DNA of 52,782 nt from Rhizobium sp. Q54 (GTDB taxonomy: Bacteria > Pseudomonadota > Alphaproteobacteria > SMXQ01): positions 1 through 52,782 of the forward strand of contig CAMAVH010000004.1 of the NCBI GenBank assembly GCA_945861615.1, written 5' to 3'. Positions within the stretch are counted from its first letter, which is position 1. Each line of letters starts with the position of its first letter. Below the pieces are notes generated by a model that saw only the letters and a list, made by a program, of their open reading frames with translations, had not been told where the DNA came from and did not search any database. Of this stretch, positions 4,633 to 52,639 are shown piece after piece. Made by a program: the position numbers and the translations under genes.

Positions 4633-6009
4633 ATGAACGAGTTTGCCAAACTCGACAGCGTCTTGCGCAAGTTCGCGCTGATTCTGGGCATCGTGGCGGG
4701 CCTCGCCGTGCCGGCAGGATTCGGTGTTGCCGACTATGCCGGCCGGACAAATATGTTGCATCATCAGGCCGAGGATGCGGCGGAGCGCGTCGCGCAATAT
4801 GCCTATGTCTCCGGCGAAACCTGGCATTACAACCGGCAGCGCCTCGCCGATTTGATGCAGTTTTCACGGCACAACGACGCGCCGACCGAGAAGGTTCTGG
4901 AAAATAAAACAGGCCAAATCCTCATCGCGCTCGGCGGCGTCATCGAGCAGCCGGGCCTGACGGCGCGGGCGCCGATCGTCGTCAGCGACGAGACGATCGG
5001 TCATATCTCGCTGACGACGAGCGCGCGGCCTTTCCTGGCGGGCCTCGCGGGGTTCATTCTCGCCGGCCTCGTGTTCGGCTTTATGGTCTATGGCTGCGTC
5101 CATCATCTACCGTCTCGCGCGTTGCGCCGAGTCCTCAAGGACCTGATCGATACGCAAAACGACTTGCGCGATCAGGTCGGCAAGACCAGCAAGGCCTTGG
5201 CCTTCGCCGAAATGGAACAGCATCGCGCCGAGGAAGCAAATCGCGCGAAATCCGAATTTCTCGCCAACATGAGCCATGAGTTGCGTACGCCGCTCAACGC
5301 CATCATCGGCTTCTCGGGCATTATGGAATCCGGCCTCCGGGGGCCGCTCAATGATCAATATGCCGAGTACAACCGGCATATCAGCCAGAGCGGCCAGAAC
5401 CTTCTGCGCATCATCAACGACATCCTCGACATCGCCAAGATCGATGCCGGCCAATTGCAGGCGGAAGCCGAGACTCTCGATGCGGCAAGCGTGGTGGAAA
5501 GCTGCGTCGGCCTGTTGCGCCCGCAAGCCGAGGGGTCAAATATCGCGCTCCGCTATCAGCAGCCGGTCCGCATGGATTGCCGTGTGATCGCCGATCCGCG
5601 TCGGATGAAGCAGGCCTTGCTGCATCTCATGTCGAATGCCGTCAAATTCACGGCGTCCGGGGGGCAGGTTTCCCTGATGATGGCGGCGCGCAAGCCGGGC
5701 ATGATCGACGTGGTGATCGAAGATACCGGCATTGGCATGACGGCGGAGCAGATCGCCGTGGCCTTCCAGCCTTTCCGCCAGGCCGACGGTTCGCTGGCAC
5801 GCAAATACGAAGGCACCGGCCTGGGTCTTGCCCTGGCCAAGCGGCTGACGGAATTGCAGGGCGGCGAGCTCATTCTCGAAAGCGTTTTTGGCGCTGGCAC
5901 CAAAGTCACCTTGCGCTTGCCGGCGGCCGATCCAGCGCAGATCCATGTGCTTCCAGCGAAGAAACGGCGCTTCGGCCGCGTCTGGCCGAGCGGCGCCGCA
6001 GTGGCCTAG
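4633..6009 (+). CDS. Membrane sensor histidine kinase (HisKA + HATPase_c), no receiver domain
   Basis: Two TM segments flanking a periplasmic region; H-box [23 protein letters not shown]; SNAVKFT, DTGIGM, GTGLGL boxes. Confidence 0.93.
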
Positions 6010-6015
6010 CGCCGA

Positions 6016-6199
6016 TAAAGAAAGCCGCCGTTCGGCGAACGGCGGCTTTTAGTGAGGCGTGGCGGGCGATCCAGGACCGGACCTTCTGCGGTTTTCCCCC
6101 ATCAGCGCCACAGCGGGACCGGCTGGTCCTGTATCGCCCGCATCGTCGATTGCCCCTCGCCTGGCGGAGAGGACGACCGCCAGAGGCGCAATCGAGTCT
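6016..6199 (-). ncRNA. Candidate sigma54-dependent small RNA (~185 nt)
   Basis: Begins 12 nt after a consensus -24/-12 promoter. Tiled by hairpin 6146-6195 (loop UCGUCCUCU), hairpin 6062-6141 and terminator 6021-6049. No convincing ORF. Confidence 0.6.
6017..6050. terminator. Bidirectional intrinsic terminator between the kinase gene (+) and the candidate sRNA (-)
   Basis: AAAG-AAAGCCGCCGTT-CGGCG-AACGGCGGCTTTT; T-runs on both strands. Confidence 0.8.
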
Positions 6200-6209
6200 C
6201 CCTGAGCAG

Positions 6210-6226
6210 AGCAACCGTCGTGCCAA
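6210..6226 (-). promoter_or_regulatory. sigma54 (-24/-12) promoter
   Basis: Minus strand reads TTGGCACG-ACGG-TTGCT, an exact match to TGGCACG-N4-TTGC(W); intergenic; A-tract at 6259-6269 just upstream. Confidence 0.8.
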
Positions 6227-6353
6227 CTAGGCGCTGCGGTAAGTGTCGGAAAATTCGCTAAATTTTTTTGCGCGGTGGGAACGCCGCCGGGCGCGGCAGC
6301 GAAATCGGGCAGCGCTGCTCATTTCGCATGCAACGGAAGAACATGCGGCGGGT

Positions 6354-7040
6354 TCAGCGCGGCGCGACGCTGTTGCGTTCCTGGATCGCGCGCTCCATGT
6401 CGTCGAGACCGAGATCGACGATCCCCAGCAGGGACAGCAACAGAAGCGCGCCGAAGGCGAAGATGACGGCGCCGGAGATGCGGCCGATCCACAGCATGCC
6501 GCGATCGGTGACGCGGCCGTGGAACAGCGCGGCGACCGTCGTCAAGGCGAACCACCAGGCGCTGGCGCCGGCGAGCACGCCGACCGTGAGCACGACGCCG
6601 AGGCGCGGATGGTCGGCGATATGCGGGATGTTGATCGCCGCGAAGATCGCCGCGAAGGAGATCACCGTCGTCGGGTTGGTCAGCGTGACGAAAAAGGCGG
6701 AGATGAAATCGCTCAGCAGCTTTTCGCGGTCGCGCGTCGCCGGGGCTGGCGTGCGGCGCGCCAGCATGGCGCGCAGGCCGATGAGGCAGAGCATCGCGCC
6801 GCCGCCGCCGCGCACCCAATCGTTATGGTCGATCAGCGGCGCCATGAGGAAGCCGATGCCGAAGGCGGCGATGGCGCCGTAGATGGCGTCGGCGAGGGCG
6901 GCGCCGAGGCCGGAGACGTAGCCGGCGAGCTTGCCCTGCGCGATCGCGCGATGGATGCACATCACGGCGACGGGGCCGACCGGCGCGGCGATGACCACGC
7001 CGACGAACAGGCCCTTCCAAAACAGCGTGGTGACATCCAT
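6354..7040 (-). CDS. LysE/RhtB family translocator
   Basis: N-terminal 'GVVIAAPVGPVAVMCI', 'GLGAALADAIY', 'TLTNPTTVI'; about six TM helices. Confidence 0.88.
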   Translation of the reverse strand: MDVTTLFWKGLFVGVVIAAPVGPVAVMCIHRAIAQGKLAGYVSGLGAALADAIYGAIAAFGIGFLMAPLIDHNDWVRGGGGAMLCLIGLRAMLARRTPAPATRDREKLLSDFISAFFVTLTNPTTVISFAAIFAAINIPHIADHPRLGVVLTVGVLAGASAWWFALTTVAALFHGRVTDRGMLWIGRISGAVIFAFGALLLLSLLGIVDLGLDDMERAIQERNSVAPR

Positions 7041-7234
7041 CTGCGGACGCAGGCTCCCGTATCCACCGGCTGCGGTTGCGCTGGCCGAACCCCGCCATCA
7101 GCCGAGGGGCCTCGCTTCTTATCGCAGGGCCACGGATCGCACAACTGGCAGCGGGACCCCCGCGGGGACACGGTTGCGTCAGAAACTCGGGAATGGCTGC
7201 GAGAAGGGGGTTGATCGGCGATTCGCCGCCCCGT

Positions 7235-7927
7235 AAAGAATGGAGGCGTCAGGTTGCCCGGTCCCTTGAGGGGGACAGGGCGCGTGCCCGGCAAGACACC
7301 GCCTGACGCCTCGGGAGCCGGCCTGACTCCCGATCCGCAAGAGCCGTCGGACGTTCCGGCCGCCGCTCGGCCCGCTTCCCCAGGGAGAGCGCGCTGCCAT
7401 CCGGCCGCCACGGCCCGCATCCCGGCGAGGGAAGGCGGTCCGTCGTCCCGTTCGGCGCGGCTTTTCGCAAAGCCGGCCTTTCCCCGGAACCTGCCGTTCT
7501 GCGCCGTCCAACGCGCTTCGCGCTCCTTGGCGATCCTCGCTTCTCCGGCCTCCGCGAAGAGGCCTCTCGCAGCGATCCCTGCCTCGGGCGCGGACGCACC
7601 CTCGCGGGTCCGTCCTGCGGCGCCGGCCATCTCCGTCCTTGGAGAGCGGAGACCGGTCGGCCCGGAAGCGCCGGCCTCGGTGCAGAGGCGGCTCATTCCG
7701 TCCGGCGCATCGCCTTGCCGATCCCAACGCCTCGCGGCGCCCGGAGGGCACGGTTTGAGAGATCCTTGCGAATCCCTCGCGCCAGGTTCGGGCTGCTCGA
7801 TCTGTCTTCGCGGGACTTGCGTCCCGCGCGCACCGACCGTCTCGCCCCCGCTGTCGGCTGGCGGACGCAAAACCCGTGAGGGTCTTCGCGGCGTCTCGCC
7901 GGTCTTCAGCGGCACTCTTACTGATCG
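7235..7927 (-). ncRNA. Candidate large structured ncRNA (~690 nt), family not recognised
   Basis: GNRA-capped hairpins on the minus strand at 7458-7475, 7592-7615, 7728-7739, 7757-7778, 7809-7828; closing helix 7915-7927 with 7331-7343; 11-bp terminal stem 7243-7253/7302-7312 followed by CAUUCUUU. Overlapping ORFs are R/P/G/A-rich with no recognisable domain. Confidence 0.65.
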
Positions 7928-7932
7928 CCTGA

Positions 7933-7961
7933 ATGATCGCCAGGACGCGGGAGTTGGACAA
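7933..7961 (-). promoter_or_regulatory. Possible sigma70-type promoter for the large RNA
   Basis: Minus strand TTGTCC-N17-GATCAT; predicted +1 near 7926-7927 coincides with the 5' strand of the closing helix. The -10 is non-consensus. Confidence 0.4.
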
Positions 7962-8043
7962 GCGACGCGCCGGATAGGCCATCCAGAATCTTGTGCATGG
8001 AAAGGCGAGATCCGCACAATGCGCGCACAGGGATTCCACAGGC

Positions 8044-8052
8044 TTATCCACA
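8044..8052 (+). promoter_or_regulatory. DnaA box
   Basis: Perfect TTATCCACA, preceded 3 nt upstream by a degenerate copy GATTCCACA (8032-8040). Confidence 0.55.
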
Positions 8053-8119
8053 TTCGCGCCTCGCCGCGAAGGGAGGCCGTTGATATTGTTCAATCCGCAT
8101 TTTAGACGAGGCTTCCAAC

Positions 8120-8416
8120 ATGCCGCGCAGCCCCCGTGTCGAGATCCTCTACTGCCGGCAATGCCGCTGGCTGTTGCGTGCCTCTTGGATGGCGCAGGAA
8201 CTGCTGACGACCTTCTCCGAGGAGATCGGCGAGCTGGCGCTGCAGCCCGGGACCGGGGGGATTTTCGAGGTGCGGGTGGAAGGCGTTTTGATCTGGTCGC
8301 GCAAAGACGAAGGCCGCTTTCCCGAGATGAAGGAGCTGAAGCAGCGCTTGCGCGACCGCATCGCTCCGGACAGGGCGCTCGGCCATTCCGATCAGGGCCC
8401 TTCCGGACCCGCTTAA
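8120..8416 (+). CDS. Rdx (SelT/SelW/SelH) family thioredoxin-like protein
   Basis: VEILYCRQCRWLLRASWMAQELL (CxxC), PGTGGIFEV, FPEMKELKQRLRD; GAGG RBS. Confidence 0.9.
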   Translation: MPRSPRVEILYCRQCRWLLRASWMAQELLTTFSEEIGELALQPGTGGIFEVRVEGVLIWSRKDEGRFPEMKELKQRLRDRIAPDRALGHSDQGPSGPA

Positions 8417-8855
8417 CTCCCAGCCAGAGCGAAAGGCTTTGGCGAAGCCCAGGGCCGAGAGCGCCCGTAAAGCCTCAAAATCGCCCAAGCCCGTTGAAAA
8501 GGCAGGGATTTCGCCGAACCTGGGGGCCGTGGCGTTGACTTGCCGGGGCCGGGGGGCTACACCCTTCCCGCACCGCAACAGGGCCCCCCGCCCTGGGCCT
8601 TGGATCACCCTCCGGGACCGGCGGCCGCACTGAAGTCTGCGCTGAATATTGGCCGTTTTGGAAATCCGTCGCGCCCGCCTGTCGATATATCGGCCGGTCC
8701 GATCGACAAAGACCGTCGCTCCCGCGCCATGCGTTTCTGATATGCCTGAGGGCCGCCGCTTCGGCTGGTCCTGTTCGGCGCGATCTGCGTAACGTCTTCT
8801 AACTGGTTATTCTCGCCCCGCTTCCGATCCCCGCTTCCGACTAAGGCCCCGCCCG

Positions 8856-35293: not shown

Positions 35294-36193
35294 ATGGCCA
35301 GTCTCAAGGACCTCCGGGTCCGCATCAACAGCGTGAAGAACACGCGCAAGATCACCTCCGCCATGAAGATGGTGGCGGCGTCGAAGCTGCGTCGCGCCCA
35401 GGAGCAGGCCGAGGCCGCGCGGCCTTACGCCGAGCGCATGGAACGCATGTTGGGCTCGCTGGCGGCCGCCTTGGGCTCCGCCACCGGCGCGCCGGCGCTG
35501 CTGTCCGGCACCGGCAAGGACGACGTGCATCTCGTCGTCGTGTTGACCTCCGACCGCGGCCTGTGCGGCGGCTTCAACGGCTCGATCGTGCGTGGCGCGC
35601 GCGCGCATATCCGCAAGCTGCTCGCCGCCGGCAAGACGGTGAAGCTGCTGACCCTCGGTCGCAAGGGCCGCGATCAGCTCAAGGGCGAGTTCGCGCCTAT
35701 CATGTTCAAGGCCGTCGACGGCCTCGGCAAGCCGCGCCTGCGCTTCGAGGAAGGCGCCGACGTCGCGCGCCTGCTCGTCGACATGTACGCCGCCGGCGAA
35801 TTCGACGTCGCGACGCTGATCTACAATCGCTTCAAGTCGGCGATCGTCCAGGAGCTGACGGTTCAGCAGCTCATTCCGTTCCCGGTGCCGACGCTCTCTG
35901 CCGAGCAGCTCAGCGCGCCGACCAGCGCCGGCGTGCCGGCGGTCTATGAGTTCGAGCCGGACGAAACCGAAATTCTCGCCGAGCTGCTGCCGCGCAACCT
36001 CGCGGTGCAGGTGTTCCGCGCGATGCTGGAAAGCTTCGCCGGCGAGCAGGGCGCCCGCATGGCCGCGATGGACAACGCGACGCGCAACGCCGGCGACATG
36101 ATCAACAAGCTGACCCTCATCTACAACCGCACGCGTCAGGCCGTCATCACCCGCGAGATGATCGAAATCGTCTCCGGCGCCGAAGCCGTCTAA
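35294..36193 (+). CDS. atpG: ATP synthase F1 gamma
   Basis: [30 protein letters not shown]. Confidence 0.97.
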
Positions 36194-52549: not shown

Positions 52550-52639
52550 GGAGGGGTGCCAGAGTGGTCGATCGGGACGGTCTCGAAAACCGTTGTGCCT
52601 TCACGGGTACCGTGGGTTCGAATCCCACCCCCTCCGCCA
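52550..52639 (+). tRNA. tRNA-Ser(CGA)
   Basis: GGAGGGG/CCCCTCC acceptor stem, G discriminator, encoded CCA; ACGGT-CT-CGA-AA-ACCGT anticodon arm; long variable arm; GTTCGAATC T-loop. Confidence 0.97.

Follow-up and report, generated by a model that had tools for sequence, protein, structure and literature searches.

The locus and its neighbours

The subject of this work is a gene for a large structured RNA outside the described families, located on the minus strand (about 7927 to 7235) of a 52,782-nt stretch of contig CAMAVH010000004.1 of Rhizobium sp. Q54. This whole stretch is called the window below, and coordinates given without a contig refer to it; the genome it belongs to (G000) comprises 2.98 Mb and is 92.3% complete. 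The gene, of about 690 nt and with a structure that covaries among homologues, has two predicted ends: the 5' end is placed about 7 nt past the -10 hexamer of a promoter-like element, and the 3' end is taken as the U-run that follows the terminal stem. It sits in the interval 7041-8119, between a LysE-family gene (lysE; Pfam LysE; 6354-7040, minus strand) and an Rdx-family (SelW/SelT-like) gene (8120-8416, plus strand), the latter followed by sdhC, sdhD and sdhA. The start of lysE lies about 195 nt past the end of the RNA, a distance already given correctly in the first-pass annotation of this DNA. Between the two stands a block, GGGGCCTCGCTTCTTATCGCAGG (7108-7131), that is conserved in all six genus-level sequences and is probably the promoter or operator of lysE itself. 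The only match to Rfam in the whole window is a tRNA gene at 52550-52636.

Three long open reading frames (ORFs; 363, 304 and 283 codons), using both strands, overlap the RNA interval, and could be taken to mean that the locus is, or once was, a protein-coding gene. Frames of this kind, however, are expected in DNA of 65-70% G+C, none of the three matched a Pfam family, and of the 265 pairwise gap runs counted within the genus only 9 have a length divisible by three, whereas the other 256 do not (197 of them being single-base). Conservation of a reading frame, which the first-pass annotation had named as a finding that would speak against an RNA gene, is thus not what the gaps display; judged from its pattern of change the locus is non-coding, and we give a coding or decayed coding gene practically no credence.

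Conservation and distribution

A BLASTN search for homologues, suggested by the same annotation, recovered the RNA in all five same-genus genomes, at about 80% identity over 0.9-1.07 kb and in the same synteny, as well as pieces of it in four other genera. The genus alignment is made of blocks of identity between variable hairpins, with many 1-2-nt indels. The order is represented by a single family in the genome collection used, and because BLASTN reached only 12 of the 31 genomes of that family, a covariance model (R1, covering the 3' domain of the RNA) was needed to reach 29. These 29 genomes account for 10 of the 11 genera of the order and for 23 of its 24 high-quality genomes, while the two genomes that R1 missed are 86% and 91% complete. 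Outside the order, R1 matched 12 of 149 genomes that each stand for another family of the class (E 3.5e-11 to 4.1e-4), and in a phylum-wide draw of 151 genomes none of the 150 others matched. The RNA is nearly universal in this one uncultured alphaproteobacterial order, which comes from freshwater, soil and drinking water, and is found in about one in twelve of the other alphaproteobacterial families sampled. Exact-motif scans added 21 loci from species-representative genomes, all of them metagenome-assembled Alphaproteobacteria and 11 of them duplicating loci already found, and 20 loci from metagenome contigs. Counted between the upstream module and the terminal stem, the length of the 32 distinct RNAs is 278-818 nt, and their G+C content 57-73%.

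The surroundings are fixed across families, and consist of sdhCDAB (divergent), sometimes the Rdx-family gene, an array of DnaA-type boxes, and the RNA. A mobile element (a miniature inverted-repeat transposable element or MITE, an insertion sequence, a prophage or part of a plasmid) was rejected on account of this fixed synteny and of copy number: the RNA gene has one match in G000, which argues against the multicopy MITE that the first-pass annotation had kept in mind. No match to the RNA was found in plasmid and phage collections.

Second copies were seen in a few genomes. One genome of another family carries a tandem pair (G158:C67:35159-35322 and 36029-36185; locus L117), each copy of which has its own box and promoter module, and a second, weaker copy is present in one genus of the order (G017:C182:9250-9401, locus L116; G007:C106:9911-10062).

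Secondary structure and strand

Five hairpins with GNRA tetraloops had been claimed on the minus strand of the interval, and all of them are present. On the plus strand they read CGGCTTT-TCGC-AAAGCCG (7458-7475), GGACGCACCC-TCGC-GGGTCCGTCC (7592-7615), CGCC-TCGC-GGCG (7728-7739), GAGAGATCC-TTGC-GAATCCCTC (7757-7778) and CGCGGGAC-TTGC-GTCCCGCG (7809-7828), and the loops GCGA and GCAA appear only on the minus strand. Folding of both strands against shuffled sequences, likewise proposed beforehand, gave for 7225-7965 a free energy of -413.6 kcal/mol on the minus strand (z -4.82, with none of 20 shuffles as good) and of -381.4 kcal/mol on the plus strand (z -1.91, with one of 20 as good). The same bias is present among 33 homologues, in which GNRA tetraloops closed by at least four pairs number 166 on the RNA strand and 15 on the opposite one, and UUCG loops closed in the same manner 38 and 2, respectively.

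A consensus computed by RNAalifold on a MAFFT alignment of the 33 full-length RNAs (alignment A2) contains 128 pairs in 25 helices. In this alignment 84.6% of the cells are paired, compared to 77.0 +/- 0.3% upon shuffling (reached in none of 500 shuffles) and to 41.7-50.1% when the consensus is slid by 1-3 columns. The covariation score is 0.292, as opposed to 0.182 for shuffled alignments (again reached by none of 500) and 0.083-0.132 for the slid consensus. Changes on both sides were seen in 68 pairs (53.1 shuffled, 46-60 slid) and in 344 cells (144.6 shuffled, 121-165 slid). Taken as sequence evidence, these figures indicate that the secondary structure is kept through compensatory changes. 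An earlier RNAalifold run on the 3' part, with 11 sequences, had only 3 of 35 pairs changed on both sides because that region is nearly invariant.

The consensus pairs of the same alignment include 590 G.U cells and 151 A.C cells, and they are therefore satisfied to 84.6% on the RNA strand and to 73.5% on the other. Together with the GNRA loops and the folding z-scores, these counts point to the minus strand as the RNA strand, and the strand asymmetry that the first-pass annotation had read from single hairpins is borne out by all three.

Anatomy of the RNA

The core of the RNA, of about 280 nt, consists of a closing helix (P1), a multi-branch domain, a GGGAG hairpin, a branched terminal stem and a U-run. 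In P1, the 5' strand (7915-7926, minus strand) pairs with the 3' strand (7332-7343, minus strand) as helix 1 of the consensus; changes on both sides affect 8 of its 11 pairs, and 88.2% of cells are paired in the 33 sequences. A closing helix had been proposed between 7927-7915 and 7343-7331, and the RNAalifold prediction (7926-7915 with 7343-7332, the same 8 of 11 pairs being compensatory) upholds it to within one position at its ends. P1 also forms in the minimum-energy fold of a natural 272-nt short form, along with the GGGAG hairpin and the branched terminal stem, and this short form folds with a z of -4.75 (none of 200 shuffles as good).

Between the two strands of P1 lies an expansion domain of about 430 nt (7480-7910, minus strand), which is optional and rich in GNRA loops: it holds four of the GNRA hairpins listed above (7592-7615, 7728-7739, 7757-7778 and 7809-7828), two conserved stretches, CGCCGGACGGAA and GAGGCCGGCGCUUCC, and a hairpin whose loop reads CUCUCCAAGG, and its helices covary (helices 2-17). 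In genome G001 (locus L006, 278 nt) the segment from about 7910 to 7480 is cleanly absent and the parts flanking it on both sides are kept; a contig from an RNA library (294/325 nt) is likewise without the expansion domain, skipping 7456-7847. Judging from these natural short forms, about 430 nt of the middle of the RNA (~7910-7480) is dispensable, a feature that, like the DnaA-type box array, the first-pass annotation had overlooked.

The GCGA-capped hairpin at 7458-7475 (minus strand) belongs to the multi-branch domain and is kept in the short form. The loop CUCUCCCUGGGG (7378-7389, minus strand) is invariant in 33 of 33 sequences and caps a covarying stem (7401-7391 with 7375-7365; helix 19), in which 8 of 10 pairs show changes on both sides; related loops, such as UCUGCCCGGGA, stand at this position in distant families. 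The stem GGCGUCAGG is also part of the RNA. A CCCCA loop and the UGGGG of the invariant loop, both of them invariant, are a candidate tertiary pairing. Directly 5' of the terminal stem, the hairpin CGGGAG-loop-CUCCCG (7313-7331, minus strand; helix 21) has 93.2% of its cells paired and changes on both sides in 3 of 7 pairs, and distant families have it as GGRGC...GCUCC.

The RNA ends in a terminator-like branched domain (7235-7312, minus strand; helices 22-25). Two covarying hairpins lie within its 11-bp stem, GAGGCGUCAGG/CCUGACGCCUC (7312-7302 with 7253-7243), and the U-run after the stem is supplied by CAUUCUUU (7242-7235). This stem, on which a branched domain had been proposed to close, has 100% of its cells paired in the 33 sequences. 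In alignment A4, where pairs were counted on the first 23 rows (sense) and seven low-scoring antisense rows were excluded, the stem and the U-rich tail are kept in 23 of 23 sense matches, distant families included, and in the latter the stem shows compensatory changes (e.g. GUCGGG/CCCGAC and GCCAAG/CUUGGC).

Beyond the terminal stem, 10 of 31 unique loci carry a further TTATCCACA-type box no more than 45 nt past the U-run (L029, L030, L033, L040, L044, L068, L070, L076, L084 and L085), and in other families an inverted repeat resembling CAACAA...TTTTGTG follows the terminator.

The terminal domain and the downstream gene bear on another explanation put forward in the first-pass annotation, namely that the RNA acts in cis, as a very long leader or attenuator controlling the gene downstream, here lysE. 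In the window, lysE is co-directional and begins about 195 nt past the terminal stem, and a stem with a U-run could serve as a regulated terminator. Co-directional lysE, however, stands directly downstream only in the genus of the window and in one other genus (g3; L010), and the stem and U-run close the RNA everywhere. Most of the order has a convergent citE-like aldolase/lyase gene after the RNA, as seen at L030, L034, L039 and L040 (HpcH/HpaI), and in other families the next Pfam-matched gene is convergent at 8 of 10 loci, being a gene for mesaconyl-CoA hydratase, a citE-like gene or a GGDEF-EAL gene. At L123 the convergent gene comes after an unmatched co-directional ORF, and at L122 the ORF downstream has no Pfam match. 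In addition, the block at 7108-7131 resembles a control region belonging to lysE itself. We therefore abandon the leader proposal, to which we would assign only a very slim chance, and we reject a riboswitch or cis-leader class for the same lack of a conserved association with a co-directional gene.

Promoter-like element and DnaA-type boxes

Upstream of the RNA, the minus strand carries a promoter-like element (7933-7961) with a -35 hexamer TTGTCC (7961-7956), a 17-nt spacer and a -10 hexamer GATCAT (7938-7933). The first-pass annotation had used this element to place +1 at the closing helix. It is present as described, and all 19 upstream regions that were aligned, from different genera, keep its TTG and AT.AT letters at a fixed spacing; it falls, however, below the threshold of a scan for sigma-70 sites, and its function as a promoter is best regarded as probable from that conservation.

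Further upstream there is an array of DnaA-type boxes (7992-8052, minus strand) comprising four direct boxes and one inverted box. The direct boxes, which repeat every 11-12 nt, are TGTGGATAA (box 1, 8052-8044, perfect), TGTGGAATC (box 2, 8040-8032), TGTGCGCGC (box 3, 8029-8021) and TGTGCGGAT (box 4, 8018-8010), all on the minus strand, as is the inverted box CCATGCACA (8000-7992), which is degenerate in the window. Written through, the array reads TGTGGATAA-gcc-TGTGGAATC-cc-TGTGCGCGC-at-TGTGCGGAT and, after 9 nt, CCATGCACA, with TTGTCC-N17-GATCAT located about 30 nt beyond the inverted box; the fixed module of boxes lies about 20-130 nt upstream of a conserved TTG-N17-(G/A)ATCAT promoter. We compared the boxes to TTATCCACA/TTATNCACA, which we take to be the DnaA-box consensus. 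At least one perfect TGTGGATAA occurs at a fixed offset in 28 of 31 unique full modules, two perfect boxes in 6 of 31, and an inverted T[TA]ATNCACA at a fixed offset in 19 of 31. In relatives richer in A+T, boxes 1 and 2 are both perfect copies of TGTGGATAA and the last box is TTATGCACA or TTATACACA. The whole genome G000 has only 16 perfect boxes, and the combined box and promoter module occurs in it once. A profile of the upstream module found it at 39 of 42 loci, the three misses being contigs that end after 345-666 nt of upstream sequence, and the module is present at 10 of 10 loci fetched from other families.

GANTC, the site methylated by CcrM in Alphaproteobacteria, is contained in box 2 of the window (TGTGGAATC) and in the -10 region of several relatives, where the latter reads GAATCAT (e.g. 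L007, L033, L040 and L044).

An array of this kind raises the possibility that the DNA itself is the functional unit, as a locus that titrates or recycles DnaA or as a secondary origin, and that the hairpins are incidental or form cruciforms. The conserved five-box array speaks for it, as do the additional box that 10 of 31 unique loci carry no more than 45 nt past the terminal stem and the location of the RNA 199-256 kb from hemE, the likely origin. Pairing kept by G.U on one strand only (590 versus 151 cells), however, is a property of RNA, and so are GNRA and UUCG loops confined to one strand, which duplex DNA would not account for. The locus has neither an AT-rich unwinding element (G+C is 0.687 for 6001-8000) nor a switch in GC skew, and its sequence is present in RNA libraries. 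For these reasons we find a purely DNA-based role very unlikely, although the array may have a role at the DNA level besides driving the promoter.

That the locus is oriC itself was rejected, despite the five boxes, based on the region adjacent to hemE and on the skew of genome G023. Alphaproteobacterial origins usually lie beside hemE. The distance between the RNA and hemE is 256 kb in G023 and 199 kb in G044, and on G023:C2 the GC skew is -0.021 +/- 0.004 before the RNA, -0.014 +/- 0.003 from the RNA to hemE and +0.001 +/- 0.003 beyond hemE, which places the switch at hemE (~2.28 Mb) and not at the RNA (2.02 Mb). On two shorter contigs (G013:C13 and G002:C4) skew differences are about 1.5-1.7 standard errors, and the cumulative maximum is, if anything, at the locus; over the 52.8-kb window the skew is uninformative. 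Clustering of relaxed boxes does not single out the RNA locus (one box with up to one mismatch, two with up to two mismatches). In G000, a region of contig C49 upstream of hemE (~8133-8617) has five relaxed DnaA boxes and a stretch of 49% G+C that carries ACAACTACAACTACAAC and TTATTAAGATTCTTAGATTGTAGTAG, and this region is likely to be the chromosomal origin.

Presence in RNA libraries

Four metatranscriptome runs from four studies were mapped to the window. Among the pieces listed, 12 of 15 fall inside 7273-7914; the others are two 35-nt matches of long foreign contigs (6758-6792) and one partner of the short-form joint. Pieces of 95-99% identity cover 7502-7652, 7578-7774, 7688-7911, 7749-7881, 7752-7901 and 7764-7914. 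A diverged contig of 294/325 nt is the short form mentioned above, in which 7273/7280-7456 is joined to 7847-7896; it has a word depth of 43.8 and 91.6. None of the pieces listed lies on the lysE or Rdx flanks except the 35-nt foreign matches, and in a contig comparison of this kind the uncovered parts carry no evidential weight. Six metatranscriptome runs share 9-14% of sampled words, a figure that says nothing on habitat. What these libraries establish is that the sequence of the RNA is present in RNA samples within the predicted bounds, and we take them no further than that.

Comparison with known RNAs and DNA elements

At gathering thresholds, the 4227 models of Rfam 15, which include OLE, ROOL, GOLLD, HEARO, raiA, group I and II introns and riboswitches, gave nothing at the RNA interval; at E up to 10, the region 6900-8300 gave five matches at chance level (at most 16.7 bits, with thresholds of 35-112), and 13 homologous loci, distant families included, gave none. 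The view of the first-pass annotation that no known class applies is upheld by these scans, and a decayed intron, which it had considered as a possible objection, has no Rfam intron match in its favour. The large RNAs that the genome would be expected to encode were found elsewhere and were rejected as candidates: RNase P RNA at G000:C72:12817-13202 (292 bits) and the alphaproteobacterial transfer-messenger RNA at C80:1259-1585 (260 bits). The 6S RNA was also rejected, as it is found elsewhere in five of five relatives that carry this RNA too; no 6S match was obtained in G000 (92.3% complete), probably owing to an assembly gap.

OLE, an RNA of Bacillota that is highly expressed and whose biochemical function is unsettled, resembles this RNA in its size (~600-700 nt), single copy, branching, and conserved stretches between covarying helices. 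This RNA, however, is alphaproteobacterial, has no match to the OLE model of Rfam and no adjoining genes for partner proteins, and differs from OLE by its DnaA-box promoter module and by a 430-nt domain that is absent in some species. ROOL and GOLLD are likewise large ornate RNAs from environmental data (lakes, in the case of GOLLD) and rich in GNRA-type hairpins, and are reported to form RNA-only homo-oligomers (PMC12286853). Unlike them, the present RNA is chromosomal, at a fixed syntenic site beside sdhCDAB, has no match in phage or plasmid sequences, and is not matched by their Rfam models.

Among alphaproteobacterial RNAs, a parallel in setting is CcnA of Caulobacter crescentus, whose non-coding gene reportedly lies among binding sites of a cell-cycle master regulator (PMC8959179); both are non-coding RNA genes of Alphaproteobacteria beside master-regulator sites. 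The present RNA, compared to CcnA by description only, differs in its size of 278-818 nt, its position 199-256 kb from the likely origin and its DnaA-type boxes. CcnA is a small RNA (sRNA) located at the origin, driven by CtrA and acting by base pairing.

Clusters of DnaA boxes away from the origin and at conserved positions are a feature shared with datA and DARS of Escherichia coli and with the DnaA-box clusters of Bacillus subtilis, but the array described here stands at a fixed spacing to the promoter of an RNA, and we know of no large structured RNA gene associated with any of those loci. RNA II of ColE1-type plasmids, also structured, is about 550 nt in length and bears a DnaA box close to its 3' end, to which the 10 of 31 unique loci with a box just past the terminator can be likened; this RNA, in contrast, is chromosomal, single copy and absent from plasmids, has a terminator-like end, and is not accompanied by a skew switch. 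That DnaA also acts as a transcription factor is documented (PMC8203912).

In the full-text literature covered by our search, which left subscription journals and supplementary tables outside its scope, there is no report of such an RNA, nor of a link between an RNA and DnaA, and a search of PMC11109978 found no mention of sdh, succinate dehydrogenase, DnaA, proteobacteria or mesaconyl.

A stand-alone RNA and how it may work

Of the two possibilities left by the first-pass annotation, an independent large non-coding RNA and a leader of lysE, the former is supported by the conservation, the covariation, the strand asymmetry, the conserved promoter and terminal stem with U-run, and the RNA-library contigs that fall inside the predicted ends. 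The reading we favour, at a probability of roughly 0.7, is that of a stand-alone, compactly folded non-coding RNA that acts in trans and whose synthesis is coupled to DnaA. According to it, and as the arrangement of sequences would suggest, DnaA bound to the box array would set the rate of transcription, so that the level of the RNA would follow the state of replication initiation; because the boxes lie upstream of the -35, we guess that DnaA activates. The terminal stem and U-run would end the transcript, and the RNA would then act as a folded scaffold or as a component of a ribonucleoprotein, in which the invariant loop and the invariant stem sequence might serve as points of contact with a conserved partner. 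It is the density of GNRA loops, the invariance of loop and stem beyond what pairing needs, and the tolerance for a 430-nt insertion that lead us to a scaffold or ribonucleoprotein, and we infer that the RNA is neither a base-pairing sRNA nor a cis leader.

The main rival is, in fact, a base-pairing regulatory RNA, whose pyrimidine-rich invariant loops CUCUCCCUGGGG and CUCCCCAAGG (the latter in the expansion domain) would pair with the purine-rich ribosome-binding sites of mRNA targets, in the manner of the anti-Shine-Dalgarno loops of rhizobial sRNAs. In its favour, the order keeps both C/U-rich motifs, which occupy hairpin loops, with little or no variation, and the RNA is equipped with a promoter and terminator of its own and abundantly represented among contigs from RNA libraries. 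The corresponding loops of distant families (UCUGCCCGGGA, CAUCUGGGGCA and UCUUCACGGGA), however, are not anti-Shine-Dalgarno-like, and an RNA that measures 278-818 nt, folds into 25 covarying helices and carries numerous GNRA loops goes far beyond what an sRNA pairing through a seed would need. We consider this alternative improbable.

Several observations weigh against the trans-acting, DnaA-coupled RNA that we favour. With regard to structure, the shuffle control behind the covariation figures disregards the relatedness of the sequences, the baseline of pairing is high (77%) due to G+C-rich sequences, and the MAFFT alignment is not structure-aware, so that variable helices are poorly tested; for lack of a control for relatedness and of a structure-aware alignment, the covariation figures are to be taken as strong support and not as a probability. 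As for the ends of the gene, the promoter agrees with the consensus at 8 of 12 positions, and a sigma-70 scan (TTGACA, 16-18 nt, TATAAT; threshold 9 of 12) finds no site. A simple scan for terminators with 3-8-nt loops does not call the terminal stem, which encloses branches, and finds instead one unrelated terminator-like site on the plus strand (7788-7800). The link to DnaA is a match of sequence to the consensus given above; in the window only one of five boxes is perfect, and 3 of the 31 unique modules lack a perfect box altogether. The RNA evidence consists of assembled contigs, which are blind to strand, ends and level, and RNA libraries can carry DNA. Finally, the view of a scaffold or ribonucleoprotein stems solely from size, GNRA density, invariance and insertion tolerance, and the neighbours (sdhCDAB, the Rdx-family gene, the citE-like gene, mesaconyl-CoA hydratase and LysE) are metabolic and give no clue to function.

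What the finding means

Bacterial RNAs that are large and intricately folded but have no assigned function are rare, and RNase P, OLE, ROOL, GOLLD and raiA have each opened new biochemistry or structural biology. The RNA family reported here, of about 300-800 nt, is previously undescribed and, as far as Rfam 15 and the literature covered by our search reach, it is the first such RNA found for the Alphaproteobacteria. Its natural minimal form of about 280 nt suits structural work. A more far-reaching idea, which we put forward tentatively and hold to be rather unlikely as it stands, is that array and RNA together are a module that controls the replication cycle, the RNA feeding back on initiation or on the cell cycle. 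The array, at a fixed 200-250 kb from the origin, would be duplicated early in the cycle, DnaA-ATP would switch the RNA on, and the feedback might operate, for example, through binding of DnaA or its regulators, or through a multimeric RNA body. If this were true, these bacteria would possess an RNA-based counterpart of loci of the datA/DARS type. In any case, the DnaA-type array upstream of the promoter offers a regulatory handle that can be tested, and may tie a structured RNA to the initiator of replication.

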